Of a stretch of 64,000 nt of DNA, positions 5,915-40,595 are shown piece by piece. Each line of letters begins with the position of its first letter. Within the stretch, counting starts at the first letter, position 1. The notes below the pieces were generated by a model. The model was given only the letters and a program-made list of their open reading frames with translations. It ran no database searches and was not told the DNA's origin. Source of the stretch: a phage; assembly GCA_036253495.1 (NCBI GenBank), contig GCA_036253495.1_4125.1, one strand, 5' to 3'. Made by a program: the position numbers and the translations under genes.

Positions 5915-5944
5915 ATATCCTCCTTTATTCATTATATTATATTT

Positions 5945-5980
5945 AATCAAAAAAGAAAAGCCAGTACAGAGTACTGGCAT
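5945..5980 (-). terminator. rho-independent terminator between RCC1 paralogs
   Basis: minus-strand GCCAGTAC-tct-GTACTGGC + TTTTCTTTTTTG. Confidence 0.6.
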
Positions 5981-5989
5981 TTAAAATAA

Positions 5990-7165
5990 TCAAAATGTAG
6001 GAAGTTTGAATTCTCTCATAACAGATGAACTGCTTGCAGATACATTATCTGGTGATTTCCCTGCGTAGTATAATTTATTATCAATGAACATATACAATGT
6101 TGCATCATTTCCTGCTACAAGTGATTCACTTTTCTTAAATTTAACACCACTAGGTAAAATTGCTTCAACAAATGAACCTGATTCTCTTGTAGTATTATTT
6201 GCCAATTGACCATTGTTATTATAACCAGTACTATAAATTTTACCTGAACTATAATATACGAGTCCACGAGTACTAGTGTTTTCTATTCGAATGAATTCAC
6301 TATCATCTGGAACTGTCGTTGATAGTACTGGGTTTAACTTATAAGCAGATGATACATTATTATTACCCAATTGACCATAACCTTGAAAGCCTAGTGTATA
6401 CATAGGACATGATTCTGGTGTACCTTTTGTTATAATACCAATATAATTCACACTACAAAAAATGTCTATTACTTCTGTAATAGGTGTACCCTTATATTGA
6501 ACCCAAGGGAATACATACGATTGTTGCTTACCATTTCCCAAAGTACCGGAAGTTGTTGTCCCAGTACGCCACATTGTATCATCAAGTTTAATAATCCAGT
6601 TAGCTGTCGTTATCGATGAACAGAATTTTTTAACATTATCCACTAAAAATGTAAATTGATTATAATATGATGCAGTGTTTATACCAAACTTAGCACCAGT
6701 ATTATCACCTAACAAATATAAACTATTATCTGTACCTAAAATCAAAGCATAATCATAACCCACGTATATATCTTTAATTCTTGAAATTCCAAATTGTGTA
6801 AAATAGCTTGTACATTCTGTGAATGTTGTTATATTATTGGTTGTATTATTACCTAGCCATTTATCTAAACCACTATAAAAGAATCTATCATCATTTGTGC
6901 GTATTAGACAAAAAGCGTTCATTGTACTGCACCAAAAATCTTTAACATTGCTATATATTTTTGTCCATTCAGTTACTGCATTAGTATGACCTAAACCAAA
7001 AATTCCACCATTCTGAAGACCAATAGCCCATATTGAACCATTTTTATCAAGCATCATTGTACATGTATGTGAATAACCACCCGATGGTGTAACTAATTTA
7101 ACAAAATTGGGAATATATGGTAAAACTTTATTTCCATAATCCAACATTCTAACAAAAGGTAACAT
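5990..7165 (-). CDS. RCC1-like repeat protein, MLPFVRM-anchor paralog
   Basis: N-term MLPFVRMLDYGN; motifs GFQGYGQLGNN, GYNNNGQLANN; SD AAGGAGG; track extension rejected. Confidence 0.7.
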   Translation of the reverse strand: MLPFVRMLDYGNKVLPYIPNFVKLVTPSGGYSHTCTMMLDKNGSIWAIGLQNGGIFGLGHTNAVTEWTKIYSNVKDFWCSTMNAFCLIRTNDDRFFYSGLDKWLGNNTTNNITTFTECTSYFTQFGISRIKDIYVGYDYALILGTDNSLYLLGDNTGAKFGINTASYYNQFTFLVDNVKKFCSSITTANWIIKLDDTMWRTGTTTSGTLGNGKQQSYVFPWVQYKGTPITEVIDIFCSVNYIGIITKGTPESCPMYTLGFQGYGQLGNNNVSSAYKLNPVLSTTVPDDSEFIRIENTSTRGLVYYSSGKIYSTGYNNNGQLANNTTRESGSFVEAILPSGVKFKKSESLVAGNDATLYMFIDNKLYYAGKSPDNVSASSSSVMREFKLPTF

Positions 7166-7195
7166 AATTCCTCCTTTATTCATTATACTATATTT

Positions 7196-7230
7196 AATCA
7201 AAAAAGAAATGCCAGCATCGAGTACTGGCA
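7196..7230 (-). terminator. rho-independent terminator between RCC1 paralogs
   Basis: minus-strand imperfect hairpin GCCAG..CTGGC + T-run. Confidence 0.55.
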
Positions 7231-7236
7231 TTATTG

Positions 7237-8424
7237 TTATAGTTGTCTTGGTGTATCAAGTACATATCTATTTGTACTAGGACCACCATCATCATACGTT
7301 CCGGTTGAATAGATATTTTTCATATCAGTTAGAAATGTACGATACGAACCTCTATATATTTTTATTTTATCATACATAGAATATGTTATTTGTGCTGGCA
7401 GTGGACATGCAGTAAATTTACCAATAGTAACATTAGAACCAACACCCAACGAACCAGCATAACTACTCGCATTTAAACCAGTTGCATATACACCAGTACT
7501 CGTAACTAGTATACTAGATTGTGTTGGGTATCCAGTATGGATTGAATACAAAGTTCCAGTTGGTAGAGTAGTACTATTATTTCCTAATACTGCTAGTGCT
7601 GTACTAGTCGTAGTGTTATTACCCCATGCACCATTACTAGCTAAACCACCCACAAGGAACTGTCGTGCTCCTGTACTTGGATTTTCAACTAAAGCACTGA
7701 CCGCACCACTTGAACAACCAGTATATTGTAATGTTTTTGTATATGTTGTACTTGGCTGATATAAAGTATATTCATTATAGGGAGTCCATGTAGTACTGGA
7801 ACTTATACCGGATGTACCACCACCAATATATAAATTATTTTGTGTATCAAAAAACATTACACAGTTATTTGTTGACTGTATTTGTGCAATATCAACATTA
7901 GGTGTGACAGCTTTTACAAATGATCCATCTGTTATTTGTTGAGTTTGTCCAGTACCATCAGCGAATTGTCTACCCCCACTCCAACCAGTACTCCATATTG
8001 TATTATTATCCATTAAGAAAGTAAACCACGTAGTACCTGCATACATCTGTTTAATTGAAGTACTTGAACTTTGTGTGTACAAATTTTCAATATATTGGTT
8101 ATAACTTAAAAATGATGTAGTACTAGTTTCTAAACCAATATGACTACCATATCCACAATAAAAATAATTTAAGTCATTATCTTGTACTAACAAAGTTCCT
8201 TGTGTCACCCAGCAATCTTTGACATTTTCTCTAATTAATGTCCATGATCTTAGTGCATTATTATTTCCTCTCCCAAATTTTCCAAAACTATTACTTCCTC
8301 GTGCGTATAGTTGACCATCAGTATAAAGTACAACAACATCAGTATCAGTTGGTATTATTTTCTTAATTTGAAGTGGAATAGGTACAATATTTCCATAATC
8401 AAACATTCTAACAAAAGGTAACAT
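7237..8424 (-). CDS. RCC1-like repeat protein, MLPFVRM-anchor paralog
   Basis: N-term MLPFVRMFDYGN; SD AAGGAGG; conserved upstream cassette. Confidence 0.7.
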   Translation of the reverse strand: MLPFVRMFDYGNIVPIPLQIKKIIPTDTDVVVLYTDGQLYARGSNSFGKFGRGNNNALRSWTLIRENVKDCWVTQGTLLVQDNDLNYFYCGYGSHIGLETSTTSFLSYNQYIENLYTQSSSTSIKQMYAGTTWFTFLMDNNTIWSTGWSGGRQFADGTGQTQQITDGSFVKAVTPNVDIAQIQSTNNCVMFFDTQNNLYIGGGTSGISSSTTWTPYNEYTLYQPSTTYTKTLQYTGCSSGAVSALVENPSTGARQFLVGGLASNGAWGNNTTTSTALAVLGNNSTTLPTGTLYSIHTGYPTQSSILVTSTGVYATGLNASSYAGSLGVGSNVTIGKFTACPLPAQITYSMYDKIKIYRGSYRTFLTDMKNIYSTGTYDDGGPSTNRYVLDTPRQL

Positions 8425-8455
8425 AATTCCTCCTTTATTCATTATATTATATTTA

Positions 8456-8490
8456 ATCCAAATAAGAAAGCCAGTATCAAGTACTGGCCT
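8456..8490 (-). terminator. rho-independent terminator between RCC1 paralogs
   Basis: minus-strand GCCAGTA-cttga-TACTGGC + TTTCTTATTTGG. Confidence 0.6.
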
Positions 8491-8494
8491 ATAT

Positions 8495-9664
8495 TTAAAC
8501 TGGTGAATCTAATACAAATTCTAAACTACTAATGCCACCATATGTGACATTTGTCCCTGTGCTATATACAAAATTACCATCAGTTATATAAGTTCGGTTA
8601 TACCCACCTGCCATCTGCGACTTACTATAATCAAACCCATCAGGAACGATTGCTTTGGTATATACTAATGCATTATTAGATGTACCAATACCTAACATAC
8701 CAGCTCCTGAAGATTTATTGTAGCCGCAACAATATATACCATCTGTTGTAGCAATAACTTGGTTATAATATGAAGTAATGTTAGCAATGCTTACTACATC
8801 ACCGGGTGGCATTAGTGAAGCAGTTTGAACCTCAAATGCTCTATAATCACTGAGAGAACCATTTATCCCATCTGCTTGTGCACCAAATATTCTCGAACCG
8901 CCATTTGCGATGATGGTTTTACCAGTGGGATCAGTACCAATTGCCATTGCCATTGAAGTACTATTCTCCATATAGTACTTGATATTAATTGTATTTCTTA
9001 AGCTGGTAGGAGCACCATAATATATAGTATATAACTTACCTCCTGAACTTGTAACTGCATTTACTCTTCCTGTATAAAATAGCCATCCTTGGTTTGTAAC
9101 ATAACCGTGCATTAAATTACTTGCAAACAATTTAACAGGTAATTGATCTGCTGCGGTCGGAACAGTACTTTTGACGAATTTTCTAGCAACATTGTTAGTT
9201 GTTGTCCCATCACCCAACTGACCATCACCCCCTGCTCCAGTACTCCATATTGTTTGGTCTGTTAGTAATACACTTGTAGTCTGATAACTAACTGCTATAT
9301 CTAATATTGGTAATGTTAACGTATCGAATGTTGGCATAGCAGAAGTCCATATTGATACTGCTGCCCCTGGCATACCAACAGTTGTTGAACTTCCACTGTA
9401 CCATATTTCATCATTGCTTTTCTTAATAACTATCGACGTGGCTCCCATCCAAAAATCTTGAACATCAGAAGTGCTAAAAGTCCATGTAGTAACAATATTT
9501 TTGTGACCTAAACCCAAAAGACCATTTGTATTCTCACCACGCACATATAAATCACCACTGTTTGTTAAAACAGCAACATTATAGTTGTTAGCTAGTATTT
9601 TTTTAATATTTGGTTTAGCAGGTGCAATATTCCCATACTCTAACATTCTTACAAAAGGTAACAT
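8495..9664 (-). CDS. RCC1-like repeat protein, MLPFVRM-anchor paralog
   Basis: N-term MLPFVRMLEYGN; motif GAGGDGQLGDGTT; SD AAGGAGG; 44-aa track extension rejected. Confidence 0.7.
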   Translation of the reverse strand: MLPFVRMLEYGNIAPAKPNIKKILANNYNVAVLTNSGDLYVRGENTNGLLGLGHKNIVTTWTFSTSDVQDFWMGATSIVIKKSNDEIWYSGSSTTVGMPGAAVSIWTSAMPTFDTLTLPILDIAVSYQTTSVLLTDQTIWSTGAGGDGQLGDGTTTNNVARKFVKSTVPTAADQLPVKLFASNLMHGYVTNQGWLFYTGRVNAVTSSGGKLYTIYYGAPTSLRNTINIKYYMENSTSMAMAIGTDPTGKTIIANGGSRIFGAQADGINGSLSDYRAFEVQTASLMPPGDVVSIANITSYYNQVIATTDGIYCCGYNKSSGAGMLGIGTSNNALVYTKAIVPDGFDYSKSQMAGGYNRTYITDGNFVYSTGTNVTYGGISSLEFVLDSPV

Positions 9665-9695
9665 AATTCCTCCTTTATTCATTATATTATATTTA

Positions 9696-9730
9696 ATCCA
9701 AATAAGAAAGCCAGTATCAAGTACTGGCTT
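9696..9730 (-). terminator. rho-independent terminator between RCC1 paralogs
   Basis: same cassette as 8456-8490. Confidence 0.6.
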
Positions 9731-9734
9731 TAAT

Positions 9735-10883
9735 TCATTGTATAAATGACATATCAACTTCGGTATATCTTGTAGTGTACTGCCCAGAACTTCCACCCAT
9801 TACTAGATTGGAAAAACCAGTATAAAATAACTTACCTTCATCTGTGAGAATCAAACTACCGATGTTATTCAGTACTAAACTGTAAGAACTATTAAAATTA
9901 GCATAGGACTGGGTATAATAGAACTGATTTGTAAGATTACCAACACCCAATTGTCCACCAGTGTTAACCCCAGTTGCAAATATCGTAGTACCAAATCTGC
10001 GAATATGTGAGGCCATATTGCCGACGCAACAATGTACATTCTGAACATCCGAATTCAATAAAGTTGGTGTTGTGTATTGCTTAAGTGTTGTGCCTGTACC
10101 GAATTCATTACCATATGATACCCCATACTGTGTACCACAAGCGTACAATTTATTATCATCTTTAATAAAAAATGTACTCTGATAACTTACATCGACATCT
10201 ATAACATTAGTCTGTATTCTAACAACTCCAGTACTAGCAGTTTGATTGCCTGTCCCTAACTGATAGTAAGTGTTAATACCACAACCCCATAATGTATTAT
10301 CTTCTTTTAGGTATATGTTACCAACAGCTTTTTTTACCGATGATATGGCTTCAATCTTAACAAAGGCGTTAAATGAATTTGTATTTGTGCCATTACCAAA
10401 AGATGATCTGGTTGATGTGCTGTTTGTTCCGCAGCAATATAAAGTACCATCAGTTGTTATCAAATTCACTTTAAGATCACTGTAACTACTCATGTATTTT
10501 ATATCAGAAACATTAATACCACTGGATGTTATCCATGAAGTACAATCTGTCCACGTGTTATAATATGCACCTGAACCAGAAAACGCACTCGGACTTCCAG
10601 TTATAAACACTTTTCCAGTACCGTCTTCTTCATATAATTGACAACCACTACTGTTATTTTCCAAAAGGACTCTTTTAACATTAGTCGCACTAAGAATAAA
10701 TTTACTCGACGCTACACCAGTTCCAGTACCCTGACTGACTGCCGCTGATGCATACAAATTTTTCGTGTATGTATCATGAAAATACATAGCACTACCGCCG
10801 GAATATATTTTAAAACGTGTACTAGGATCAGGCGGGTTAGGTGCAATATTCCCATAATCTAACATTCTTACAAAAGGTAACAT
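9735..10883 (-). CDS. RCC1-like repeat protein, MLPFVRM-anchor paralog
   Basis: N-term MLPFVRMLDYGN; motifs GINTYYQLGTGN, GVNTGGQLGVGN; close paralog of 13279-14427. Confidence 0.7.
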   Translation of the reverse strand: MLPFVRMLDYGNIAPNPPDPSTRFKIYSGGSAMYFHDTYTKNLYASAAVSQGTGTGVASSKFILSATNVKRVLLENNSSGCQLYEEDGTGKVFITGSPSAFSGSGAYYNTWTDCTSWITSSGINVSDIKYMSSYSDLKVNLITTDGTLYCCGTNSTSTRSSFGNGTNTNSFNAFVKIEAISSVKKAVGNIYLKEDNTLWGCGINTYYQLGTGNQTASTGVVRIQTNVIDVDVSYQSTFFIKDDNKLYACGTQYGVSYGNEFGTGTTLKQYTTPTLLNSDVQNVHCCVGNMASHIRRFGTTIFATGVNTGGQLGVGNLTNQFYYTQSYANFNSSYSLVLNNIGSLILTDEGKLFYTGFSNLVMGGSSGQYTTRYTEVDMSFIQ

Positions 10884-10915
10884 AATTCCTCCTTTATTCA
10901 TTATACTATATTTAA

Positions 10916-10950
10916 TACAAAAAAGAAAAGCCAGTATCAAGTACTGGCAT
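10916..10950 (-). terminator. rho-independent terminator between RCC1 paralogs
   Basis: minus-strand GCCAGTA-cttga-TACTGGC + T-run. Confidence 0.6.
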
Positions 10951-10954
10951 TATG

Positions 10955-12064
10955 TTATTTTGGTAAATCAATTTTAGTAAAGACTGCAACATCCTCGCTT
11001 GCACCGGGAATGGCGTAATACGTTCCAGTACTATATACATCTCCATTTTTGGTTAATATTGAAGTCAAACCATCACTAAAAAGAACATCCCTAATCTCAC
11101 TAACTTCAACGGGTAATTGTAAATTTGTAGCACTATATATAGCACCAGTTTGAGAATTGTTTAATCCCAAACCACGGTTCGCCCCAACACCCTTCTGATA
11201 TGTACTGGTAATTACCATTTGTGTAGCAGTATTTAATGCAGGTGAATTCGTCATAAACAACGGAGAACTATTAGGAAAAGTACTTGCAGGAACTGCACGG
11301 AATGTAGTCGTGCCTGAACTAAGAAAGTTTGGAGTTTGACCACATACGAAATATGATGTACCATTATAGTAATTAAATGCATTACCACCAATGGCTGCAT
11401 CGATTACACCAGAACTACGTAATCCCCAAGTGTTAATTTGTGTTTGGTCCCCTGTACCATGCTGCCCACTGCTATTCCATCCAGAACTATATAGCTTATT
11501 ATCTAATGTAATATACATACTATCATTTGCATTAGTCATTACTTTACGCACGTTAGTAGCACATTGAGTTAATGTGTAAATCGATGATGAGCCAATACCT
11601 AAAGAACCACGATATCCATTATCTCCTGCACCATAGAGTACTGAACTAGTGCTAAGTACAAATATTAAACCATTTGTACATACAATATTAGCAATTTCAC
11701 TCACTGGTATAGCATTGGTAAACCAATTAGTCCTTTCAACTAATATAGTACTGTAAGAAGTAGTTGTAGAAGATGAGAACCAGTACGTTTCACCCGATGT
11801 CCATATCGTATTATCATTTTTAATAATAACAAGTGTACGACCACCCACGAAAAAATTAGAAACATCTGAACTTACTAATATCCATGAAGATACCGTGTTG
11901 TTATTACCATTTCCAGATTCACCACCTTGATTTCTACCTATGTAATATAAATCATGTGAATCAGTCAATAAGAATTGACCCTGTGTAGAAGCACCAACTT
12001 TAATTATATTTTTAGGACCGGGTGTAATATTTCCATAATCAAACATTCTAACAAAAGGTAACAT
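10955..12064 (-). CDS. RCC1-like repeat protein, MLPFVRM-anchor paralog
   Basis: N-term MLPFVRMFDYGN; motif GWNSSGQHGTGD; SD AAGGAGG. Confidence 0.7.
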   Translation of the reverse strand: MLPFVRMFDYGNITPGPKNIIKVGASTQGQFLLTDSHDLYYIGRNQGGESGNGNNNTVSSWILVSSDVSNFFVGGRTLVIIKNDNTIWTSGETYWFSSSTTTSYSTILVERTNWFTNAIPVSEIANIVCTNGLIFVLSTSSVLYGAGDNGYRGSLGIGSSSIYTLTQCATNVRKVMTNANDSMYITLDNKLYSSGWNSSGQHGTGDQTQINTWGLRSSGVIDAAIGGNAFNYYNGTSYFVCGQTPNFLSSGTTTFRAVPASTFPNSSPLFMTNSPALNTATQMVITSTYQKGVGANRGLGLNNSQTGAIYSATNLQLPVEVSEIRDVLFSDGLTSILTKNGDVYSTGTYYAIPGASEDVAVFTKIDLPK

Positions 12065-12074
12065 ATTTCCCTCC

Positions 12075-13205
12075 TTAATTTAATAATGCCCCTGGCAAAT
12101 CCACTTTGACGAATTGTGCATATGCTGAGGAATTTTGATCAAAGTTTGGTCCCAATCCATAAAATGAGCTAATGCCGTCTTCATTTGTGTATATGATATA
12201 AACGTTCTTTACATCATTTCCGCATATAAATCGAATGTCTTTCGTTTGTGTTCCCGCTGGAACATTACGAAGGTTAACAACGCCATTACTTGCATTGTTA
12301 TCAGCCGACGCAATTGGTAATTGATTTTGATCATATTGACCACGCATATTTTTTGCATCTAAACCAAACACAGTATTTGATACCGCACCAACTTTCAAAA
12401 ATGAACCAAAACTATTATTGAATGACTTTGGAAATTTACCACTATAAACACTTCTCCCATCTGATAATACCGCTGAACTGAATGCCCCGCTATTCGATAT
12501 GGCAAATTCATTGTAAGGAAGTGTACCCATTTTGGTATATACAGAATATGAATTAGTGGAAGTATTATCAATAATCTTATTACCATTATATCCAATACCA
12601 TACTGGTATCCGTCTGCATCTTGAACTATACACAAAGGACCACTTGGGGTTTGTGTCAACGAAACAACACGTTCAACTTGTATATCACCAAATGTATTTC
12701 TTCGCCATGTTCTATCTATTATAGTACTAGTATTACCCAAAGATAATGCCACACTATATAATAGATTGTTTTCAGTAAAAATGGCAACATAATATGGGTG
12801 GTTAATAACTTGCTTCATCCCAGCATCAATAACTTCCTGTGGAATATGATCAGTAACATCCAACCAATCAAGGTTAGATGATGCAATATCTGGAGTACTG
12901 AATTTGTCAAATCTAGTTGAGCCACAAACTAGCACTCTATCATCATTTGTCAAAGCCACTGTGCTAGTCTGCATATTAGAACTGAATGATTTAACATTAC
13001 TAATGTTAGACTTGTACCAACCCTTATCAGCAGCACCCACCGTGAATCCGGTTCCCATTGATCCACTTGTACTTGTACCATAAGCCCACATCTCACCACT
13101 ATATGTTAGTGCCATACAGTGGCTTCCATTTGCTTGGAAATCCTTTATACCAGTGGGAGCAACCACTGTATTCCCATAATTAAACATTCTAACAAAAGGT
13201 AACAT
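12075..13205 (-). CDS. RCC1-like repeat protein, MLPFVRM-anchor paralog
   Basis: N-term MLPFVRMFNYGN; tightly coupled to downstream paralog (10-nt gap, SD AAGGAGGG). Confidence 0.65.
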   Translation of the reverse strand: MLPFVRMFNYGNTVVAPTGIKDFQANGSHCMALTYSGEMWAYGTSTSGSMGTGFTVGAADKGWYKSNISNVKSFSSNMQTSTVALTNDDRVLVCGSTRFDKFSTPDIASSNLDWLDVTDHIPQEVIDAGMKQVINHPYYVAIFTENNLLYSVALSLGNTSTIIDRTWRRNTFGDIQVERVVSLTQTPSGPLCIVQDADGYQYGIGYNGNKIIDNTSTNSYSVYTKMGTLPYNEFAISNSGAFSSAVLSDGRSVYSGKFPKSFNNSFGSFLKVGAVSNTVFGLDAKNMRGQYDQNQLPIASADNNASNGVVNLRNVPAGTQTKDIRFICGNDVKNVYIIYTNEDGISSFYGLGPNFDQNSSAYAQFVKVDLPGALLN

Positions 13206-13237
13206 ATTTCCCTCCTTTATTCATTATACTATATTTA

Positions 13238-13272
13238 ATCAAAAATAAAAGCCAGTACTTGAGTACTGGCAT
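13238..13272 (-). terminator. rho-independent terminator between RCC1 paralogs
   Basis: minus-strand GCCAGTACTC-aa-GTACTGGC + TTTTATTTTTG. Confidence 0.6.
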
Positions 13273-13278
13273 ATTAAT

Positions 13279-14427
13279 TCATTGTATAAATGACATATCT
13301 ACTTCTGTATAATTAAGAACGTTCTGTCCAGAAATACCACCCATTACTACTATTGCAATGCCACAATAATATAATTTTCCAGTATCCGTAAGTATAAGTG
13401 ATCCAGATGGACTGCGTACCAAATTACAAGAGGTATTAAACGAAGTATATGAAGGAGTATAGGAGTACTGATTAATATTATTACCAACACCTAATTGACC
13501 AGACGAGTTGCTTCCAGATGCATAAAGTACTTCATCACCTTTAACTATATGTGATGCCATGTTACCAACACAAGTATATAAACTATAAACACCTGCACTC
13601 AATAATGTGGGAGTTTTATATTGTATATCAGTAGAAGAGGAAGTACCACCTGTACCAAATTCGTTCCCATATTGTGCACCGAACTGTTTACCACAAGCGT
13701 ACAAATTATTATCCGATTTGATAAAAAATGTACTCTGATAACTTACATTAAAATCTATAACATCCGAAGAAATCATCGTCACCCCAGTAATAGAAGTTTG
13801 ATTACCCGTGCCCAACTGGTAGTAATAGTTAAAACCACAACCCCATAAAGTATTATCTTCTCGCAAATAAATGTTACCAACTGCCTTTTTAACCGAAGTT
13901 ATAGTATCTACTCTTTTGAATGTGTTAAAAGAATTAATGTTTGTACCATCACCAAATGATGATATGTTCGATATATTGTTAGCTCCACAACAATACAATG
14001 TACCATCGTTTGTTATCAAATTCACCTTCATATCATAAAAACTACTCATGTATTTTATATCAGAAACATTAATACCACTTGATGTTATCCACGTAGTACA
14101 GTCCGTCCACAAAGTTTTTCTATCAGTTACACCAGTGAATGCCTTCGTGTTACCAGTGATAAAAACTTTTCCAGTACCTTTCTCTTCATACAATTGACAA
14201 TCACTACTGTTATCTTCCAATAGAACTCGTTTAACATTCTCCGCACAAAGAATAAATTTACTCGATGCTACACCTGTACCAGTACCCCAATTCGTCGCAG
14301 AAGATGCATACAACTTATCAGTATAAGTATCATGAAGATACATGGAATCACTGGAATATATTTTAAAACGTCCATCATCACCAGGGGCAATATTCCCATA
14401 ATCAAACAATCTAACAAAAGGTAACAT
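13279..14427 (-). CDS. RCC1-like repeat protein, MLPFVRM-anchor paralog
   Basis: N-term MLPFVRLFDYGN; motifs GFNYYYQLGTGN, GSNSSGQLGVGN; first gene of minus-strand cluster. Confidence 0.7.
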   Translation of the reverse strand: MLPFVRLFDYGNIAPGDDGRFKIYSSDSMYLHDTYTDKLYASSATNWGTGTGVASSKFILCAENVKRVLLEDNSSDCQLYEEKGTGKVFITGNTKAFTGVTDRKTLWTDCTTWITSSGINVSDIKYMSSFYDMKVNLITNDGTLYCCGANNISNISSFGDGTNINSFNTFKRVDTITSVKKAVGNIYLREDNTLWGCGFNYYYQLGTGNQTSITGVTMISSDVIDFNVSYQSTFFIKSDNNLYACGKQFGAQYGNEFGTGGTSSSTDIQYKTPTLLSAGVYSLYTCVGNMASHIVKGDEVLYASGSNSSGQLGVGNNINQYSYTPSYTSFNTSCNLVRSPSGSLILTDTGKLYYCGIAIVVMGGISGQNVLNYTEVDMSFIQ

Positions 14428-14475
14428 AATTCCTCCTTTATTCATTATAATATATTTAATCAAAAAAGAAAACCC

Positions 14476-14504
14476 TTGACACCCTTTCAGTACTGATGTA
14501 CTAT
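14476..14504 (+). promoter_or_regulatory. sigma70-like promoter for family A array (divergent from RCC1 cluster)
   Basis: TTGACA - 17 nt - TACTAT, then SD AAGGAG and ATG at 14530. Confidence 0.55.
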
Positions 14505-16352: not shown

Positions 16353-17024
16353 ATGAAACTCAATCCACAAAGCAAACGATACCTACAGCACTTCAAGTAC
16401 CTGCAATCAATCCAGGCTGAATCTACCACTAATGCATATACTTATCACCCTAATGTACTAAAGAACCTAAAGAAAAGTAAAAAAACCAGTACAAATGGAG
16501 TTAACGTATCAAAGAACCTTGAATTGTACATGAAGAAAAATAATATAGCTGTTCATTATATGAATATCTATAATACTGATTTAAAAGTATTGAGTACTAA
16601 TACGAGCATGAAGGTACTAAAGAACGCATCCTTCATCATCCATATGCAGTTGGATAATACCCCGTGCACTTTAATGCTATACTTCGGGAATACATACTTC
16701 TTCGGGAATTGTAACACCTCCCACGATGTCAATACAGCACAATTCCAAATGGGTGGCATATACAGTATGGGTTCAGAAGAAATACACGATAACATGCATT
16801 TCTTCCAACAGCAACGTACAGAAGAAACTAAATCAATTGTAGAATTCCTCAAAGAACTAGAACACAAAGAATTATCAGAAGAAGAACTATTCATGTACAG
16901 TACTGTAATCGATAATCCTGTACTGTACAAAAACGCGTACAATCTTACAAAACATGTACAGGAACTTATCAGTACTAATAAGAAAATTCATCACCTCATT
17001 ACATATATTACAAACTATGCATAA
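16353..17024 (+). CDS. hypothetical protein (223 aa) with family C-like EEELFMYSTVID motif
   Basis: SD AAGGAGA; embedded in family A array; C-terminal motif resembles family C core. Confidence 0.6.
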   Translation: MKLNPQSKRYLQHFKYLQSIQAESTTNAYTYHPNVLKNLKKSKKTSTNGVNVSKNLELYMKKNNIAVHYMNIYNTDLKVLSTNTSMKVLKNASFIIHMQLDNTPCTLMLYFGNTYFFGNCNTSHDVNTAQFQMGGIYSMGSEEIHDNMHFFQQQRTEETKSIVEFLKELEHKELSEEELFMYSTVIDNPVLYKNAYNLTKHVQELISTNKKIHHLITYITNYA

Positions 17025-17199
17025 AGAATACTACGTAAGTAAACTTACAATAGATCTCCAAAAACTTATTCCCCAAAAACCTGTAGATTTCAAAGATAAA
17101 AGCCAAACTATATTCTACCGATATCAAACAGAATCTGCAATAAATGAAGATGATATCTATAACTTGTACAATGTACTAACACTTATATACAGGTACTAA
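17017..17199 (+). CDS. small hypothetical protein, family A
   Basis: start MHKEYYVSKL overlaps upstream stop (ATGCATAA); C-term LTLIYRY; track extension rejected. Confidence 0.65.
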   Translation: MHKEYYVSKLTIDLQKLIPQKPVDFKDKSQTIFYRYQTESAINEDDIYNLYNVLTLIYRY

Positions 17200-17200
17200 T

Positions 17201-17389
17201 ATGCACAAAGAATACTACACAAAATATTTCCCAATGTACCTCATAACTAATCTATTAGATAAACCTCGCGGTATCAATGCACAAAACGATAAAAAGTACT
17301 TTACTATGTGCACTAAAGCATGTATACAAGATTATGATAGCTATCATCGAGCACTGTACCACACCCTGTACCTCGCATTCGTGTACTAA
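17201..17389 (+). CDS. small hypothetical protein, family A
   Basis: MHKEYYTKYFPM...LYLAFVY. Confidence 0.7.
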   Translation: MHKEYYTKYFPMYLITNLLDKPRGINAQNDKKYFTMCTKACIQDYDSYHRALYHTLYLAFVY

Positions 17390-17398
17390 GGAAATAAT

Positions 17399-17584
17399 AT
17401 GCATAAAGAATACTACATAAATAAACTCCCAATGCATCTACAATACCTTGTACCAACAAAACCATTGGGTATAGAAAAAGACTACGAAAAAGACTACTTC
17501 GTTAAGTGCACTAAATCCTCGATAGATATTGACGACTATAATCGAGTACTGTATCACATCCTTTTACTAATATATAAGTACTAA
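17399..17584 (+). CDS. small hypothetical protein, family A
   Basis: MHKEYYINKLPMHLQYLVPTKPLGI...LLLIYKY. Confidence 0.7.
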   Translation: MHKEYYINKLPMHLQYLVPTKPLGIEKDYEKDYFVKCTKSSIDIDDYNRVLYHILLLIYKY

Positions 17585-17585
17585 T

Positions 17586-17774
17586 ATGAACGACTATAAA
17601 GAATACTACCAAGATAAACTCCCAATGCATCTCCAACACCTTGTGCCAACAAAACCATTGGGCATAAAAGATCATGCAAAAATAATGTTCCAACAATGTA
17701 CTAAGTACACCCTAATATACGATGACAATCCATATATGCTGTACTACATAACAATGCTAATATTCAGGTACTAA
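17586..17774 (+). CDS. small hypothetical protein, family A
   Basis: MNDYKEYYQDKLPMHLQHLVPTKPLGI...MLIFRY. Confidence 0.7.
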   Translation: MNDYKEYYQDKLPMHLQHLVPTKPLGIKDHAKIMFQQCTKYTLIYDDNPYMLYYITMLIFRY

Positions 17775-18360: not shown

Positions 18361-18990
18361 TTAAACACATATAGCTAGGGGAAGCTCCGTAGTGCAAGCA
18401 TTATACAGGCTTTAACATATGTTGCATATGTTAAAATTCAGCCTGGACAAATGCGATCACTAGGATTCTCCCCAGGCTAAACCCCGTAATCATAAGTAAT
18501 CATATATAAACATTTAAGTAATCATTTATAATCATTGTAGTGAACAGTATTGAGTACTAGAGTGCAGGAATGATTCAGAATGATTCAGTACTGATATCCC
18601 ACTAAGTAGGCAAATGAAGTCGCCCAAAATTTACATAATTTTACAGTACTGAACAATTGCAAAACAAATCATTTCCAATCAAAAGTAATCACGGAATGAC
18701 CAGTACTGAAAACTCCCAATCACCTATTCAAAAAAGTTCAATTTACCCTTTGTCAAAAATCCCGAATACCCATTGGGGAAAATTCCGAATACCCCTTGAG
18801 GCTCCAGCAAAAAGTTGGTTAGTACTCCATCGTAAATCTGGATCGTAAAAATTTTGGAGTACCTATGAAATAAAAGTTGGATCTTCGAAAGTTGAAATTT
18901 ACATTGGGACATATAGGATTAGTGGGATATAATGAGTTTTGAAGAGATACAGAGTATACGATTTCAGTACTGAATAATGGAAGAAATCTA

Positions 18991-20030: not shown

Positions 20031-20269
20031 TCAATAGCTAAAAACAAAATAATTGAAAATAATTTAACGCGTTTAAACGGCCCGTAAAGCCCTGGATTGT
20101 TGGGAGTGGTGCAAATGTATAGCTTAGGTGTATTAATGCGTTAGAATGCGTCTGAGGCCGTTTTAAGGGTATAGTACTGAATAATTGTACTCACTGGATT
20201 GATTCAGTACTGAATGATAGTACTCCTATATAGAAAGAAAACTATTTTAAAAGTATTTGCAGAAAGTAC

Positions 20270-20297
20270 TTGCATACTATGTTTAAGGGCGTATAAT
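20270..20297 (+). promoter_or_regulatory. early promoter
   Basis: AAAGTACTTGCAT ... TATAAT GTTTTACATC. Confidence 0.6.
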
Positions 20298-20353
20298 GTT
20301 TTACATCGAGACGGGGGAAACGCTCCTAACTCACTTTAATAGGAATTAAAACG

Positions 20354-21776: not shown

Positions 21777-21968
21777 GTATCTATTGAAACGAACAATTTG
21801 GCCCACGGGGTGCGGGAGTGTATCTATAGAAAAAGTAGTTTAGTACAGTTACAATTGTGCACCCTATGGGTTAGCTGTTGTCATGGGGTATATTATACCA
21901 GTACTTGATAATGCTGTCAATACTTTTTTTTTACTATTCAGTACTGAAAACTATTTTTTAAAAAGTAC

Positions 21969-21996
21969 TTGCATACTATGTTTAAAGGCGTATAAT
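21969..21996 (+). promoter_or_regulatory. early promoter (upstream of structured leader)
   Basis: AAAAAGTACTTGCAT ... TATAAT GTTTTACATCAG. Confidence 0.6.
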
Positions 21997-22002
21997 GTTT
22001 TA

Positions 22003-22085
22003 CATCAGGACGGGGAACGAAATAAGTAACTCCCCGTTAAGTAGCCCAGGAGTAAGGCACACGAAAAACTCCCCTGATAAAATAG
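22003..22085 (+). other. conserved structured 5' leader RNA between tandem promoters (copy 1)
   Basis: ACGGGGAAcgaaataagtaaCTCCCCGT hairpin then CCAGGAG...CTCCCCTG; copy at 32613-32694 shows covariation. Confidence 0.5.
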
Positions 22086-22114
22086 TTTGACAAATGTTTT
22101 TAAAAGCGTATAAT
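22086..22114 (+). promoter_or_regulatory. second (proximal) promoter
   Basis: TTGACA-17-TATAAT, 30 nt before ATG 22147. Confidence 0.55.
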
Positions 22115-22146
22115 ACTTACATCAACTACTGAATGAGAGTTACAAA

Positions 22147-22821
22147 ATGAAAACTATCACTACTACTACTTTCGTTATGGATTTTTCTGAATTGAATGAG
22201 GGTGGCAAAGCGAAAACTATCACTACTACTACTTATGTTATGGCTTTTTCTGAATTGACCGCAGAACAACAAACGTCAGCTATCGAACTGGTTCGGGATC
22301 GTGAGCGTTCATGCGGGGATGATTTCTTTTCTGAGTCAGTGATCGAATACTATAAAGAAACATTATTGCCGGAATATGGCATTAATGACGCAGATTTACG
22401 ATTCAGTGGTTTTTGGTCGCAGGGTGACGGTGCATCAATCAGTACTGATCACGTTGACGGTGTGAAGTTTTTACGCAAGATTAAAGCATTAACTAAGTAT
22501 CGTTCTATCCGTCACCTGCTGAATGAAGATGATTTGGCAATGAGTGTAAAGCGTTCTCACTCCCACTACTCGCATGAAAACACTGTAAGCGGGTACATTG
22601 AATCGGCTTACACTGATTTAACCGCAAAACAAGAAACGTTAGTTAATGAGCTTGAGGAACTACTCACTGAAACTATTCGTGAATTATCTCGCAAGTTGTA
22701 CCGTGATTTAGAGAATGCATATGAGGATCAATTCACTACTGAGAACATTGTAGCACTGATTGAGGGTAACGAATATCAATTCAATGTTATTGATGGCGTA
22801 GTAGAATCAATCGAATATTAA
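22147..22821 (+). CDS. hypothetical protein with N-terminal in-frame tandem duplication
   Basis: 224 aa; KTITTTT(F/Y)VM(D/A)FSEL repeated twice; tandem promoters and structured leader upstream. Confidence 0.65.
   Translation: MKTITTTTFVMDFSELNEGGKAKTITTTTYVMAFSELTAEQQTSAIELVRDRERSCGDDFFSESVIEYYKETLLPEYGINDADLRFSGFWSQGDGASISTDHVDGVKFLRKIKALTKYRSIRHLLNEDDLAMSVKRSHSHYSHENTVSGYIESAYTDLTAKQETLVNELEELLTETIRELSRKLYRDLENAYEDQFTTENIVALIEGNEYQFNVIDGVVESIEY
22150..22262 (+). repeat. in-frame tandem duplication (~66-bp period) at 5' end of CDS 22147-22821
   Basis: AAAACTATCACTACTACTACTT..GTTATGG.TTTTTCTGAATTGA present twice. Confidence 0.8.
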
Positions 22822-24885: not shown

Positions 24886-24915
24886 TAGCCCACTATAAGC
24901 AGTGGGCTTTTTTGT
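24886..24915 (+). terminator. rho-independent terminator
   Basis: AGCCCACT-ataagc-AGTGGGCT + TTTTTG. Confidence 0.75.
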
Positions 24916-24961: not shown

Positions 24962-24990
24962 TTGACATTACCGCAAAAAGGCGTAGAATG
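24962..24990 (+). promoter_or_regulatory. promoter with long leader (H-NS-like gene)
   Basis: TTGACA-17-TAGAAT; ~120-nt leader before ATG 25113. Confidence 0.55.
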
Positions 24991-25112
24991 TATTACATCA
25001 AGACGGGGAACACTAAGTAGACCGCCAGTAAGTCGAACGAAAAACTGGACACGTCGAGAAAACTTTGATACACTAACTAACGTAAACTAAACTTTAATTG
25101 AGGAATTACATA

Positions 25113-25595
25113 ATGGCTAACGTAAAATCATTCATCAAAGCACTGGTAGCAAATGAAACTAACGTAGCGGCAGAAATCCTGGCCGAACTGGATAGCGATA
25201 CCATGAAAGCAGTACGCAACAATTTTAACATTGCGTACAGCGAAGCGAAAGAACTGCAAGCTAATAAAGCGGCAGCACTTGAAGCTGAGAAGGCAGCACG
25301 CGAAGCTGAATTGCAGAAAACGATTGAAGATATTAACGCCGCCGTCGCTGGGCTTGATCTGGAAGTAGTTACCGAAATGGCACGTAAAGCCCTGGCAGCG
25401 AAATACGGGGAAGACAAGCCAGAAGTAAAAGCTAAAAAATGGATTCAAGAACGTGTGACGGTTGTACTGGATAATGGCGAGGAATACACTGTACCAGTAC
25501 GCGGTAACTGCATTGCGGTAGTACTGGATGCTATCAAAGAAAGCGGATTGACTCGCGAGGAATGGATCGAATCTCATCGCAAAGTTGAAGCATAA
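25113..25595 (+). CDS. H-NS-like protein candidate (coiled-coil N-terminus, H-NS-like C-terminal domain)
   Basis: Ala/Glu/Lys-rich N-terminal half; C-terminus LDNGEEYTVPVRGNCIAVVLDAIKESGLTREEWI resembles H-NS [33 protein letters not shown]; long 5' leader; terminator. Confidence 0.45.
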   Translation: MANVKSFIKALVANETNVAAEILAELDSDTMKAVRNNFNIAYSEAKELQANKAAALEAEKAAREAELQKTIEDINAAVAGLDLEVVTEMARKALAAKYGEDKPEVKAKKWIQERVTVVLDNGEEYTVPVRGNCIAVVLDAIKESGLTREEWIESHRKVEA

Positions 25596-25615: not shown

Positions 25616-25646
25616 TAGCCCACCTTAAACAGTGGGCTTTTTTTGT
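25616..25646 (+). terminator. rho-independent terminator
   Basis: AGCCCAC-cttaaac-AGTGGGCT + TTTTTTT. Confidence 0.75.
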
Positions 25647-29461: not shown

Positions 29462-29481
29462 AAGTATTTTGCAAAAAGTAC

Positions 29482-32479: not shown

Positions 32480-32578
32480 ATACGCATAGAAACAAATTAG
32501 CCCACCGGGTGCATAAATGTATCTATTGTTTGCTGGTGGAGGTATTATCTAGTACTGAAAACTATTTTTAAAAAGTAC

Positions 32579-32606
32579 TTGCATTGTACTTAGAATCAAG
32601 TATAAT
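32579..32606 (+). promoter_or_regulatory. early promoter (upstream of structured leader)
   Basis: TTGCAT-16-TATAAT GTTTTACATCAG. Confidence 0.6.
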
Positions 32607-32612
32607 GTTTTA

Positions 32613-32694
32613 CATCAGGACGGGGAATGAAACAAGTAACCCCGTTAAGTAGTCCAGGAGTAAGACATAAGAAAACCTCCCCTGATAAAATAGT
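32613..32694 (+). other. conserved structured 5' leader RNA between tandem promoters (copy 2)
   Basis: ACGGGGAAtgaaacaagtaaCCCCGT then CCAGGAG...CCTCCCCTG. Confidence 0.5.
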
Positions 32695-32722
32695 TTGACA
32701 ATAGAAAGTAAACGAGTATAAT
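32695..32722 (+). promoter_or_regulatory. second (proximal) promoter
   Basis: TTGACA-16-TATAAT before ATG 32755. Confidence 0.55.
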
Positions 32723-32754
32723 ACTTACATCAACCACTGATAAGGAAACATAAA

Positions 32755-33030
32755 ATGCGGATTCTACTGACAGCTAACGAAATCGAGCAAGTACTGACTA
32801 CTAACCTGGAACAATGGAAACGTGATGCAGATATCCAGGCGGTACAATGGCTTAACGATAAGTTAACGCCAGATGACTTAAGCAAGATTGTTGACCCTCA
32901 ATTCTATGAAGATATTCACGACACGGCTTTAAGCGTCGAGGATGTACTTGATAAGCACTACATTGATATTGATTTGCAGGTTTACGGTCGTAAAAACTTT
33001 ATCACTATTCACGACATTTACAATACTTAA
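32755..33030 (+). CDS. hypothetical early protein
   Basis: 91 aa; tandem promoters and structured leader upstream. Confidence 0.65.
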   Translation: MRILLTANEIEQVLTTNLEQWKRDADIQAVQWLNDKLTPDDLSKIVDPQFYEDIHDTALSVEDVLDKHYIDIDLQVYGRKNFITIHDIYNT

Positions 33031-40397: not shown

Positions 40398-40595
40398 ATG
40401 CGTATTTTAACACAAGAAGAGCATCACGAAAGACTTATCAATAACATGGCTATGATAATGTATAAGTCTCATAAACGTGGTAATGCCTATAAACGTGAAT
40501 TAGTTATGGAACTATTCTTAGGAACTAACTTACAAAATGAATATGTTAAACTATATGTAAAAGAGTTATGTTTAGAGATAAATGGTAAACTATGA
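40398..40595 (+). CDS. small protein, family B (LGTNYQ-motif)
   Basis: first array member; promoter TTGACT/TATTAT and SD AAGGGAG upstream; FLGTNLQNEYV. Confidence 0.65.
   Translation: MRILTQEEHHERLINNMAMIMYKSHKRGNAYKRELVMELFLGTNLQNEYVKLYVKELCLEINGKL

Follow-up and report, generated by a model that had tools for sequence, protein, structure and literature searches.

In the T7 literature that we searched, the stretch between the early promoters A1 and A2 of this phage is handled as promoter spacer only, and as part of a "non-coding internalisation signal" (PMC11863960). In T4-type phages, a strong σ70-like early promoter with a stem-loop (PeSL; Arbiol et al. 2010) is repeated among small non-essential genes; recombination between the repeats leads to insertion, deletion or replacement of modules, and the stem-loops are described as effective terminators (PMC2839356). 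Other points of comparison are the nut elements (boxA-boxB) of lambda and the rrn operons, the put element of phage HK022, and riboswitch aptamers, of which small H-type pseudoknots with an A-rich third loop are a typical form. Here we describe a leader element of a jumbo coliphage whose core recurs in the T7 A1-to-A2 stretch.

The DNA analysed, a stretch of 64,000 nt that we call the window, is of the Asteriusvirus type. It holds exactly three copies of an element of about 75 nt: A, B and a diverged copy, C (Table 1). Upstream of each is a strong σ70-type promoter (P1) predicted to transcribe it, and a second promoter (P2) follows. A preliminary description of this DNA had reported such a leader between tandem promoters, and the sequences of copies A and B read as it gave them. 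The distal TTGCAT hexamer fits TTGACA at only three of six positions, but the promoter belongs to a family with more than 20 copies in the window. The leaders of A and B are 88% identical (66/75), whereas the promoter spacers on either side are essentially unrelated. In both, the closing stem runs into AUAAAAUAGUUUGACAA, the UP/−35 region of P2, and GAUAAAAUAGU lies before the P2 −35 box. Copy C differs in that the 3′ arm of the first hairpin is missing and there is no local Ha hairpin, and in its weaker second promoter. This leader had been listed both as a diverged third copy and as one of different sequence; the diverged copy does exist (24962-25112), but the second statement fails, since the invariant TAAGTAG and the pseudoknot core are present. 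The label "H-NS-like" given to gene C is backed by no library (Pfam, PHROGs, NCBIfam, PADLOC or PDB). The leader has no ATG or GTG start, and neither a mini-ORF nor a leader peptide was found in it; a tRNA/tmRNA scan of the window found none.

Table 1. Coordinates of the three leader copies, their promoters and the genes behind them.
Feature	Position	Strand	Detail
Copy A, distal promoter P1	21969..21996	+	−35 TTGCAT 21969-21974, 16-nt spacer, −10 TATAAT 21991-21996
Copy A, predicted start	A22004	+	inferred from the 7-nt distance to the −10 box, as at T7 A1
Copy A, leader RNA domain	22004..22078	+	predicted closing stem AUCAGG (22004-09)/CCUGAU (22073-78) around Ha, UAAGUA and the pseudoknot
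Copy A, hairpin Ha	22010..22037	+	ACGGGGA/UCCCCGU, 14-nt loop
Copy A, TAAGTAGCCCAGGAGTAAG	22038-22056	+	read from sequence
Copy A, CTCCCCTGAT	end at 22078	+	read from sequence
Copy A, core	22038..22072	+	UAAGUA(G) 22038-44; S1 GCC 22044-46/GGC 22056-58
Copy A, helix S2	GGAG 22049-52/CUCC 22069-72	+	part of the core; covariance model of the whole core, 54.2 bits
Copy A, A-rich loop ACACGAAAAA	22059-68	+	part of the pseudoknot core
Copy A, proximal promoter P2	22087..22114	+	TTGACA-16-TATAAT, 12/12 consensus match
Gene A	22147-22821	+	after P2 and SD; acidic product, phrog_5162
Copy B, distal promoter P1	32579..32606	+	predicted start A32614
Copy B, leader RNA domain	32614..32686	+	predicted closing stem 32614-19/32681-86
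Copy B, hairpin Ha	ACGGGG 32620-25/CCCCGU 32640-45	+	read from sequence
Copy B, core	32646..32680	+	UAAGUAG 32646-52; S1 GUC 32652-54/GAC 32664-66; S2 GGAG 32657-60/CUCC 32677-80; 51.9 bits
Copy B, proximal promoter P2	32695..32722	+	TTGACA-16-TATAAT, 12/12 consensus match
Gene B	32755-33030	+	acidic product, phrog_14947
Copy C, distal promoter	24962..24989	+	TTGACA-16-TAGAAT, directly 3′ of terminator 24887-24908
Copy C, predicted start	A24997	+	inferred
Copy C, leader	24997..25069	+	core lies between 5′ AUCAAG/GACG and its pairing partners CGUC (25052-55) and CUUUGAU (25063-69)
Copy C, core	25014..25048	+	UAAGUAG 25014-20; S1 GAC 25020-22/GUC 25032-34; S2 CCAG 25025-28/CUGG 25045-48; 52.8 bits
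Copy C, candidate weak proximal promoter	25046..25074	+	TGGACA-17-TACACT with TG; −35 overlaps the S2 3′ arm
Gene C	25113-25595	+	phrog_27871; then terminator 25617-25638

The core consists of an invariant UAAGUA followed by a small H-type pseudoknot, in which S1 comprises three base pairs of the form G-N-C/G-N′-C and S2 four to five; loop 2 is UAA, and loop 3 is A-rich and ends in GAAAA. S1 and S2 can form, and cross, in all three window copies. A 19-nt core pattern matches the window twice (0.02 expected). A covariance model of the core (R1) picks out all three copies over its full length (51.9-54.2 bits, E about 1e-11), the next best score in the 64 kb being 8.4 bits. Among 30 distinct sequences, 96.7% of S1/S2 cells are paired; shuffles reach 78.2% (0/500) and slid registers 15-40%. 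Double changes occur at four of the eight S1/S2 pairs. The sequences are related, and the independent compensatory events come to about 8-10, not dozens. The middle pair of S1 is A-U (21), C-G (4) or U-A (4), each alternative on more than one S2 background, and S2 varies among CCUG/CAGG, CCAG/CUGG, CUUG/CAAG and GGAG/CUCC. G-U pairs in the two helices are compatible only with RNA of the + strand. Nineteen core positions, mostly unpaired, are invariant, and S1 or S2 alone is worth only −0.6 to −2.9 kcal/mol. From the all-lineage alignment RNAalifold recovered S1 only; an unbiased run on the T7-like leaders alone gave the 5′ hairpin, Ha with covariation, and S2. The element is a genuine structured RNA, as had been proposed for the space between the tandem promoters, with a fold that begins at the predicted +1. 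Separately, AAGUCGAACG, which we took to be a 10-nt match to 16S rRNA, was dropped because the loop positions concerned vary among motif members.

As a whole, the leader of copy A has a predicted minimum free energy of −22.3 kcal/mol (z −2.74) and that of copy B one of −17.9 (z −1.5); for copy C, shuffles fold as well as the nested structure does (z +0.71). Neither the closing stem nor Ha varies within the A/B type, and there they are therefore thermodynamic predictions only. The difference between the A and B hairpins had been read as a paired change; it is in fact a 2-nt indel (CT) that shortens the Ha stem from 7 to 6 bp and is not compensatory. In T7-like phages, a hairpin at the place equivalent to Ha covaries. 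A closing stem starts at the predicted +1 in every non-T7 lineage, with differing sequences (AUCAGG/CCUGAU, GACGG/CCGUC, AUCGAA/UUCGGU, AACGAA/UUCGUU); stems analogous to that of copy C also occur at loci LTH01, L066 and L068. Ha and the closing stem do not align in one frame across lineages, and are described here lineage by lineage rather than formally counted. The boundaries of the leader block are kept in other phage families, and they match those of the transcript domain even where the promoters compared are unrelated (A7_1).

In the T7 A1 transcript, this core spans +54 to +92 and adjoins the A2 −35 box. At locus L060, whose leader agrees in every letter with the T7 sequence given in PMC11863960, it occupies positions 551-589, beginning 53 nt downstream of the A1 start and ending 2 nt short of the A2 −35; T7-like leaders also carry AAAAA at about −46 to −42 of A2. 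T7/T3 leaders share with the window the invariant UAAGUAG, S1 of the form G-N-C/G-N′-C, S2 and the A-rich loop, as well as the position 3′ of a strong σ70 early promoter and just 5′ of the next, with a short hairpin before. In T7, however, the motif begins at +54 after a separate 5′ hairpin, whereas a stem from +1 encloses it in the window; S2 reads CCUG/CAGG in T7 but GGAG/CUCC in copies A and B. T7-like phages have one copy, usually with boxA downstream; the window has three and no boxA with them.

T7/T3-like phages account for at least 507 records with the core, each with a single copy; rV5-like, phi92-like and other jumbo phages have it too. The phages concerned are podoviruses, myoviruses and jumbo phages that infect many host genera, and three unrelated phage subfamilies share the A/B form at 91-94% identity. 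It sits in early σ70-type promoter transcripts, as judged by predicted starts, with a second promoter usually within about 80 nt; in podoviruses no early transcript precedes the one that carries it. Measured from the core, the next −35 is 37 to 77 nt away, depending on the locus, and L066 and L068 have no second promoter. The motif is restricted to lytic phages: 5,426 E. coli genomes gave no match, and a 185,579-species genome collection gave three, one of them a T7-like fragment, only 3 of 32 million bacterial contigs. This near-absence leaves no host or prophage homolog from which to borrow a function. Rfam 15 gave no match to the window at gathering thresholds, nor to the element at E ≤ 5 at four element-bearing loci. 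In the literature on the T7 leader, on pseudoknots and small RNAs, and on Asteriusvirus and rV5 promoters we found only template listings that do not describe the motif, and it appears never to have been described before.

The surroundings of the element are modular. Between 18983 and 39454 the window contains at least 24 cassettes of promoter, 5′ hairpin, SD and ATG, and at the leader copies the leader replaces the usual hairpin behind ordinary promoters. P1 of copy A (family D4) agrees at 90% of its positions with an ordinary cassette promoter, the one at 20255-20306, and P1 of copy B is identical over 45 nt to those at 29467 and 35864. Among relatives, phage alia has one hybrid P1/P2 promoter at the very place that P1-leader-P2 takes up in outra and muut, outra is without gene muut_139, and the P2 transcripts of outra and A73 come with a hairpin already; the downstream gene of relatives can do without the element. 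From leader-less relatives such as alia, with their single hybrid promoter, the tandem-promoter layout is, on sequence comparison, the trace of cassette gain or loss through recombination between promoter repeats. Against phage 121Q the leader is 92% identical and the intergenic flanks 97%, and we dropped the notion that the leader is the more conserved. Copy A of 121Q carries B-type variants, which suggests conversion between copies.

This arrangement resembles PeSL in its repeated promoter and stem-loop, and the indels among alia, outra and muut likewise break inside the repeated cassette. Unlike in PeSL, the hairpins of the window are at the transcript 5′ end, 3′ of the promoter and without a U-run, and the payload of the leader cassettes is a conserved non-coding pseudoknot with no ORF. 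Four points, then, go beyond the preliminary description: a pseudoknot forms the core, copy C is a homolog, the motif is that of the T7 A1-to-A2 spacer and is widespread, and cassette recombination explains the layout.

Six unrelated gene families lie downstream of the leader; gene B also follows it in phage muut. The cargo proteins are acidic and belong to no annotated family in Pfam, PHROGs, NCBIfam, PADLOC or PDB. The units of copy C and of its Munch ortholog are monocistronic and end in a strong terminator. Taken together, the variable downstream genes, the invariant loop nucleotides and the marginal helices point to a cargo-independent RNA domain that would bind a host factor.

Building on the sequence family, its two helices, its place in the transcript and its cassette behaviour, all of which the genomes compared show, we propose that each copy may be understood as a promoter-flanked, non-coding cassette, which would have moved by promoter-repeat recombination and left the tandem promoters behind. 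At the distal promoter, host σ70 RNA polymerase would make an RNA domain of about 75 nt that begins at the predicted +1 and, we infer, accumulates; in copies A and B it would comprise the closing stem AUCAGG/CCUGAU, Ha, a single-stranded UAAGUA and the H-type pseudoknot. Once folded, this domain could serve as a platform for a conserved host component, whatever gene lies behind it. The putative component may act on the nascent early transcript or its polymerase in nut/put-type fashion, and pairing of the 5′ end might, as a second benefit, also guard against 5′-end-dependent decay. The pointers to such a partner are the invariant, mostly unpaired positions, the weakness of the helices, and the boxA that lies near the domain in L066 and L068 and follows in most T7-like leaders. 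We favour this account, though tentatively, and put it as a whole at slightly below an even chance.

Like nut and put, the element is a short RNA 3′ of an early promoter, with a conserved linear segment and a small helix whose A-rich loop is conserved. Its tandem strong promoters recall rrn operons, and the domain of L066 and L068 lies 11-17 nt 5′ of a canonical boxA, as rrn boxB does. No likeness in sequence to nut or put emerged, however; the RNA folds into a pseudoknot, not into a simple hairpin, the copy C unit is closed by a terminator, and no N-like protein is common to these phages. boxA occurs downstream in 25 of 35 T7-like leaders and at none of 18 non-T7 loci. It was absent at every jumbo, rV5-like and phi92-like locus examined, and in the window the seven CGCUCUUUAACAA-like matches with up to two mismatches (7.6 expected) include none near copies A, B or C; a Nus/boxA-type mechanism is therefore not general. 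Processive antitermination fits the copy C and Munch units poorly, given the strong terminator that closes them. With HK022 put the analogy is one of position only, just 3′ of an early promoter, and the terminator of gene C argues against put-type action.

A bolder proposal, which we consider unlikely, makes the pseudoknot an RNA-only immediate-early effector of T7-like, rV5-like, phi92-like and jumbo phages. Its target would be a protein conserved among enterobacteria, be it RNA polymerase or Nus factors, RNase E, S1 or a defence sensor. As the first phage product in the cell, it would in this way reprogramme transcription or RNA decay in the host, or weaken a defence, ahead of all phage proteins, and it would spread between unrelated phages as a promoter-flanked RNA cassette.

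E. coli mRNAs are stabilised by 5′-terminal stem-loops. By this general principle, the leader could be a pure 5′-end stabiliser, an elaborate form of the short G+C hairpin found behind every other early promoter of this region. It would pair the first nucleotides of the transcript and set a compact fold in the 5′ UTR, and so block 5′-end-dependent RppH/RNase E attack and RNase E scanning and lengthen the life of P1 mRNA with no specific partner. The many 5′-hairpin cassettes of the window, where the leader takes the place of the hairpin, fit this reading, as do the closing stems of unlike sequence at +1 in all non-T7 lineages. It leaves unexplained, however, both the positions kept invariant from T7 to jumbo phages, which are mostly unpaired, and a pseudoknot with marginal helices. 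The T7 motif begins only at +54, behind a 5′ hairpin of its own, and RNase III then separates it from the 0.3 mRNA; the P2 transcripts of outra and A73 already possess a hairpin. We hold a role confined to stabilisation to be rather improbable.

It is a little less probable again that P1 and the leader form a small RNA gene acting in trans, its abundant pseudoknot, made from one of the first promoters to reach the cell, sequestering or re-targeting a host protein (nuclease, RNA chaperone or defence sensor) with no need of translation and with the rest of the transcript irrelevant. Such a decoy would account for a payload at the ORF position of other cassettes, gained and lost as a unit, for the variable cargo, for the near-identity of the A/B form across subfamilies, for the confinement to lytic phages, and for the place in the first podoviral transcript. 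Yet the leader has no terminator or other defined 3′ end, T7-like genomes carry a single copy and no array, and no likeness to Rfam antitoxin, 6S or other decoy RNAs was seen at E ≤ 5. A discrete sRNA defined by a terminator was rejected, the leader being without a U-run; the ncRNA of about 90 nt ending within P2, one of the possibilities first raised, would require processing, not termination.

A DNA-level promoter element, either an UP element with an A-tract or an operator of P2 with the inverted repeats as protein half-sites, is very improbable. The T7-like S2 3′ arm does end just before the A2 −35, near the AAAAA tract, and GAUAAAAUAGU precedes the P2 −35 in copies A and B. Against this, the spacing from the core to the next −35 is variable, L066 and L068 have no P2, and crossing helices with compensatory changes and G-U pairs on the + strand only signify RNA pairing, unlike half-sites.

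We give slightly less credit again to an attenuator or riboswitch in which alternative folds end P1 transcripts before the gene or hide its ribosome-binding site. At about 30 nt, the pseudoknot resembles preQ1-I, SAM-II and similar riboswitch aptamers in size; it is also like them in topology, in its A-rich third loop, and in having marginal helices while many unpaired nucleotides are invariant. In copy B the 5′ AUCAG can pair instead with a CUGAU beside the SD. That alternative pairing, the only one seen, is absent from 121Q and EJP2, however. Attenuation, suggested in the preliminary description, falls because there is no terminator: none of the copies shows a G+C hairpin with a U-run behind it, and there is no terminator-like site in 21969-22146, 24962-25112 or 32579-32754. 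Moreover, the gene has its own promoter 3′ of the element, the T7 element is more than 300 nt from the first gene, and, unlike the aptamers, this RNA matches no Rfam riboswitch model at E ≤ 5, has no expression platform and occurs only in early leaders of lytic phages. Least credible of all is a neutral recombination scar, a functionless passenger of promoter-cassette shuffling: shuffling is evident, relatives do without the element and it is no more conserved against 121Q than its flanks, but the core is kept with compensatory substitutions in podoviruses, myoviruses and jumbo phages of many host genera, and the A/B leaders stay alike where the adjoining spacers have diverged completely.

T7 is among the best-studied viruses, yet its A1-A2 stretch is treated as spacer. 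That a core of about 35 nt is kept with compensatory changes in more than 500 T7/T3-like genomes, together with cassette exchange with three other large-coliphage groups, implies, at the level of sequence, that selection acts on an RNA function exerted just as infection begins. The window also offers a concrete case of non-coding payloads moving by promoter-repeat recombination. The motif is relevant wherever the T7 A1 promoter fragment serves as template, as it widely does as a standard in transcription work, and T7 offers a direct way to test it. Should there be a host partner, the element would add a new member to the nut/put class of leader elements, or amount to an RNA-based device for takeover or anti-defence.

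Asteriusvirus, the 121Q/PBECO4/G17 group of jumbo coliphages, includes the window phage; 121Q matches a 2-kb stretch around the element over its full length at 88.8% identity, and many other relatives match the same stretch at 91-95%. From about 19 to 40 kb the plus strand is densely packed with small genes in at least 24 cassettes, which begin with a near-consensus sigma70-type promoter and continue through a short G+C hairpin to the SD and the ATG; the element has to be judged in this setting. The initial transcribed sequence of T7 A1, ATCGAGAGGGA...TCCC, resembles the hairpin starts of these cassettes. At three places, copies A, B and C, the sequences agree with the preliminary description of a leader between a distal (P1) and a proximal (P2) promoter. 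Leaders A and B are identical at 66 of 75 positions (88%), whereas the two copies are unrelated in the spacers of P1 and P2 alike, so the conserved unit is the transcribed segment. A 19-nt core pattern matches twice in the window, with 0.02 matches expected, and a covariance model of the core scores 52-54 bits at exactly the three places A, B and C, the runner-up in the window reaching 8.4 bits. Two details of the description need correction: the change between A and B in the first hairpin (Ha), read there as paired, is a 2-nt indel rather than a compensatory substitution, and copy C, taken to differ in sequence, has its core in common with A and B.

Compared across the lineages, the core has the form UAAGUA-[G-N-C]-N(1-2)-(S2 5' arm)-(A)UAA-[G-N'-C]-NNAYGAAAA(A)-(S2 3' arm). 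Helix S2 is CCUG/CAGG in most T7-like phages, CUUG/CAAG in L033 and phage LTH01 (L-numbers denote phage loci or contigs compared for the motif), CCAG/CUGG in copy C, phage Munch, L058, L066 and L068, and GGAG/CUCC in copies A and B and their relatives. In an all-lineage alignment, RNAalifold found a 3-bp helix, S1, pairing G-N-C with G-N'-C; S1 and S2 cross and thus together form an H-type pseudoknot. Pairing counts were concordant on three alignments, the third built by an S2-only model and therefore not fitted to S1: 95.5-96.7% of cells were paired, whereas shuffles gave 78-80% (0/500) and slid registers 15-41%; the covariation score came to 0.38-0.47 (0.13-0.15 in shuffles), and double changes occurred in four of the eight pairs. 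The middle pair of S1 is A-U in 21 cases, C-G in 4, U-A in 4 and mismatched in 1. With these positions left free in an extra scan, U-A appears on the T7-like CCUG/CAGG background (L065) and C-G on the CCAG/CUGG background (L066, L068), showing that the S1 switches depend neither on S2 nor on lineage. The G-U pairs, of which 13 fall at the outermost pair of S2 and others in Ha, are compatible only with plus-strand RNA. Single helices are marginal (-0.6 to -2.9 kcal/mol each), and 19 positions, mostly unpaired, are invariant. We consider this identity and structure highly probable.

Coordinates of features in the window and of boxA sites in other phage loci
Feature	Position	Strand	Remarks
About 8 paralogous units (repeat families D7, D10, D13)	5820-14498	-	~1.2-kb period; each ends ...AACATTCTAACAAAAGGTAACATAATTCCTCCTTTA plus hairpin; genes on minus strand
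Four ~190-nt repeats	17021-17669		
Weak AU-rich core look-alike ACTAAGTAGGCAAATGAAGTCGCCCAAAATTT	18601-18632	+	only 6.8 bits; S1 GGC/GUC and S2 AAAU/AUUU possible
Cassettes	18983-39454	+	promoter AAAAGTACTTGCA..TATAAT..TTTACAT; 5' G+C hairpin (GGGGAGAAATGGTTCTCCCC-like)
GCCCAC(G/C)GGGTGC...TGTATCTAT	21800-21830; 32495-32530		upstream of P1 in A and B; also in CMSTMSU
Leftward promoter	21892-21920	-	perfect extended -10 consensus, TTGACA-17-TGgTATAAT
Copy A P1	21969-21996	+	leader next
Copy A P2	22087-22114	+	12/12 consensus, 16-nt spacer
Duplication within start of gene A	22147-22260		MKTITTTTFVMDFSEL ... KTITTTTYVMAFSEL
Copy C region	24962-25112	+	
ACUAAACUUUAAUUGAGGAAUUACAUAAUG, upstream of gene C	25086-25112		contains AACUUUAA
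Copy B P1	32579-32606	+	leader next
Copy B P2	32695-32722	+	12/12 consensus, 16-nt spacer
197-nt tandem duplication	40587-40980		
Eight copies of a 44-nt motif	42208-44889	+	ends GGAACAAACTATCAA; spaced ~210 nt
boxA, L022	~785-797		
boxA, L060	~812-823		
boxA, L068	4164-4182		
boxA, L066	~5445-5459		

Folded to an unbiased consensus, the T7-like leaders show a hairpin at the 5' terminus, then Ha with covariation, then S2. In the minimum-energy folds of copies A (-22.3 kcal/mol, z -2.74) and B (-17.9 kcal/mol, z -1.5), AUCAGG from the predicted +1 pairs with CCUGAU and encloses Ha and S2. Being invariant within the A/B type, its closing stem and Ha stand as predictions. Other lineages have closing stems at the same place with different sequences: GACG/CGUC plus AUCAAG/CUUUGAU in copy C, GACGG/CCGUC in LTH01, AUCGAA/UUCGGU in L068 and AACGAA/UUCGUU in L066.

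The 91-nt leader of copy A matched 45 phage records, including all Asteriusvirus genomes with two copies each. At 91-94% identity it recurs in ~145-kb phages of other subfamilies, namely Justusliebigvirus (outra, muut, EmilieFrey) and Vequintavirinae (A73, W70, A7_1, A5-4), where the order P1-leader-P2 is kept and the promoters and downstream genes differ. A7_1 has another type of promoter at both positions (-10 TAAGAT), and the homology runs from ACATCAGG to CCTGATAAAA, limits that define the shared block as the RNA domain with the inverted repeat AUCAGG/CCUGAU at its ends. With the core of copy C as query, matches came from T7-like Yersinia phages (nt 553-587) and from other jumbo phages; pattern scans added about 35 T7-like contigs, including L060 (39,937 bp), one 366-kb jumbo contig, and phages Munch, Hallingskeid and LTH01. 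Searching the database for the T7-type core gave 507 records of T7, T3 and Studiervirinae, one place per record, from Escherichia, Klebsiella, Salmonella, Yersinia, Enterobacter, Serratia, Pantoea, Aeromonas and other hosts; these records annotate the motif at most as '-35 signal' or 'promoter'. None of 5,426 E. coli genomes contained it, and it is practically absent among 185,579 bacterial and archaeal genomes. A 2.7-kb contig in an 'uncultured bacterium' MAG (L063, CAXYYW010000111.1) scores 67 bits for the T7-type motif and evidently derives from a T7-like phage. We found no Rfam family for the motif and no paper describing it in the searchable literature, which excludes older subscription work on T7 and T3.

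In L060 the motif lies 53 nt past the A of ATCGAGAGGG, and TTGACA-18-TAAGAT follows 2 nt after its end. Taking the T7 map to place the A1 start at 498 and A2 at 626, this is the A1-to-A2 spacer. The L060 leader is the T7 sequence printed in PMC11863960, where the region is termed an 'otherwise non-coding internalisation signal'. The look-alike in the window lies ~320 nt from the left genome end, as placed by comparison with BF17 (copy A at 3722), and recalls T7 position 551. Of 35 T7-like loci, 25 have a perfect or near-perfect boxA downstream of the motif; none of the 18 jumbo, rV5-like or phi92-like loci has one there, and none follows the motif in the window. In the podovirus-like contigs L066 and L068, terminase and lysis genes lie immediately upstream, and the order is then a single promoter, the closed domain, a canonical boxA 11-17 nt on, and the first gene. 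The early leaders of T7 and phiA1122 also contain the canonical rrn-type boxA CGCTCTTTAACAA. This suggests Nus-factor antitermination of host polymerase in T7-like early operons.

A second promoter follows the core by 37-77 nt in nearly every lineage, only L066 and L068 being without one. At outra's leader locus its close relative alia has a single promoter, a hybrid of the P1 -35 and spacer joined to the P2 -10 (L064 430-480 against L003 2460-2610); outra and muut differ from alia by exactly one unit, which runs from the P1 -10 through the leader to the P2 -35 and spacer. The alia hybrid is direct evidence of recombination between tandem promoter repeats. Outra also lacks the gene found behind the leader in muut and window copy B. 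The window P1 promoters are ordinary cassette promoters, that of copy A being 90% identical to the promoter at 20255 and that of copy B identical over 45 nt to those at 29467 and 35864, and in Vequintavirinae the same locus holds either the A/B or the C form. On these observations the leader behaves as a non-coding payload in promoter-repeat shuffling of the kind described for the PeSL cassettes of T4-type phages (PMC2839356), and the tandem promoters are the footprint of such shuffling. About 50 nt upstream of copy A P1, the leftward promoter forms a divergent pair with it and has no obvious gene behind it. The motif common to the upstream regions of A and B suggests that the duplicated block once reached further upstream.

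The downstream genes vary by place (phrog_5162, 14947, 27871, 8099, 13850, 871), which makes a gene-specific regulator unlikely; none of these families has an assigned function, and all three cargo proteins of the window are acidic. The transcription unit headed by copy C holds one gene and ends at a terminator, as does that of its Munch ortholog. AACUUUAA, upstream of gene C, is similar to UUAACUUUA, the 'epsilon' translational enhancer of T7 gene 10. The 121Q ortholog of gene A aligns over just 610 of its 675 nt; at 77%, the identity is far lower than in the adjoining non-coding DNA. Behind the copy-B leader and P2, 121Q has a different gene, ATGAAACATTTTAC... (L002 5857-5960), and the counterpart of gene B apparently lies further downstream, which would be a further case in which the cargo behind this leader has been exchanged.

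We propose that the self-contained RNA domain binds a conserved host component and, once bound, would act on its own transcript or on the polymerase. Four features argue for such a platform: invariant loop nucleotides, marginal helices, cargo independence, and confinement of the motif to early leaders in lytic phages reliant on host polymerase. Taken alone, this cis-acting mechanism is the likeliest of the readings, though less likely than not. Protection of the 5' end would be a by-product of it; that the element serves solely as a 5' stabiliser is unlikely, and that it works in trans as a decoy is slightly more so. A promoter element operating at the DNA level is very improbable. An attenuator, as the preliminary description had offered, fails because no terminator was found in or after any of the three window copies. 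An attenuator or riboswitch is marginally less credible than the DNA-level element, and a neutral scar has the slightest chance of the named alternatives; the remaining probability falls to something else. From structure through mechanism, the host-platform explanation as a whole stands, in our judgement, just short of even. We class the element with the structured leader RNAs of phage early transcripts, as one that travels in a mobile cassette flanked by promoters.
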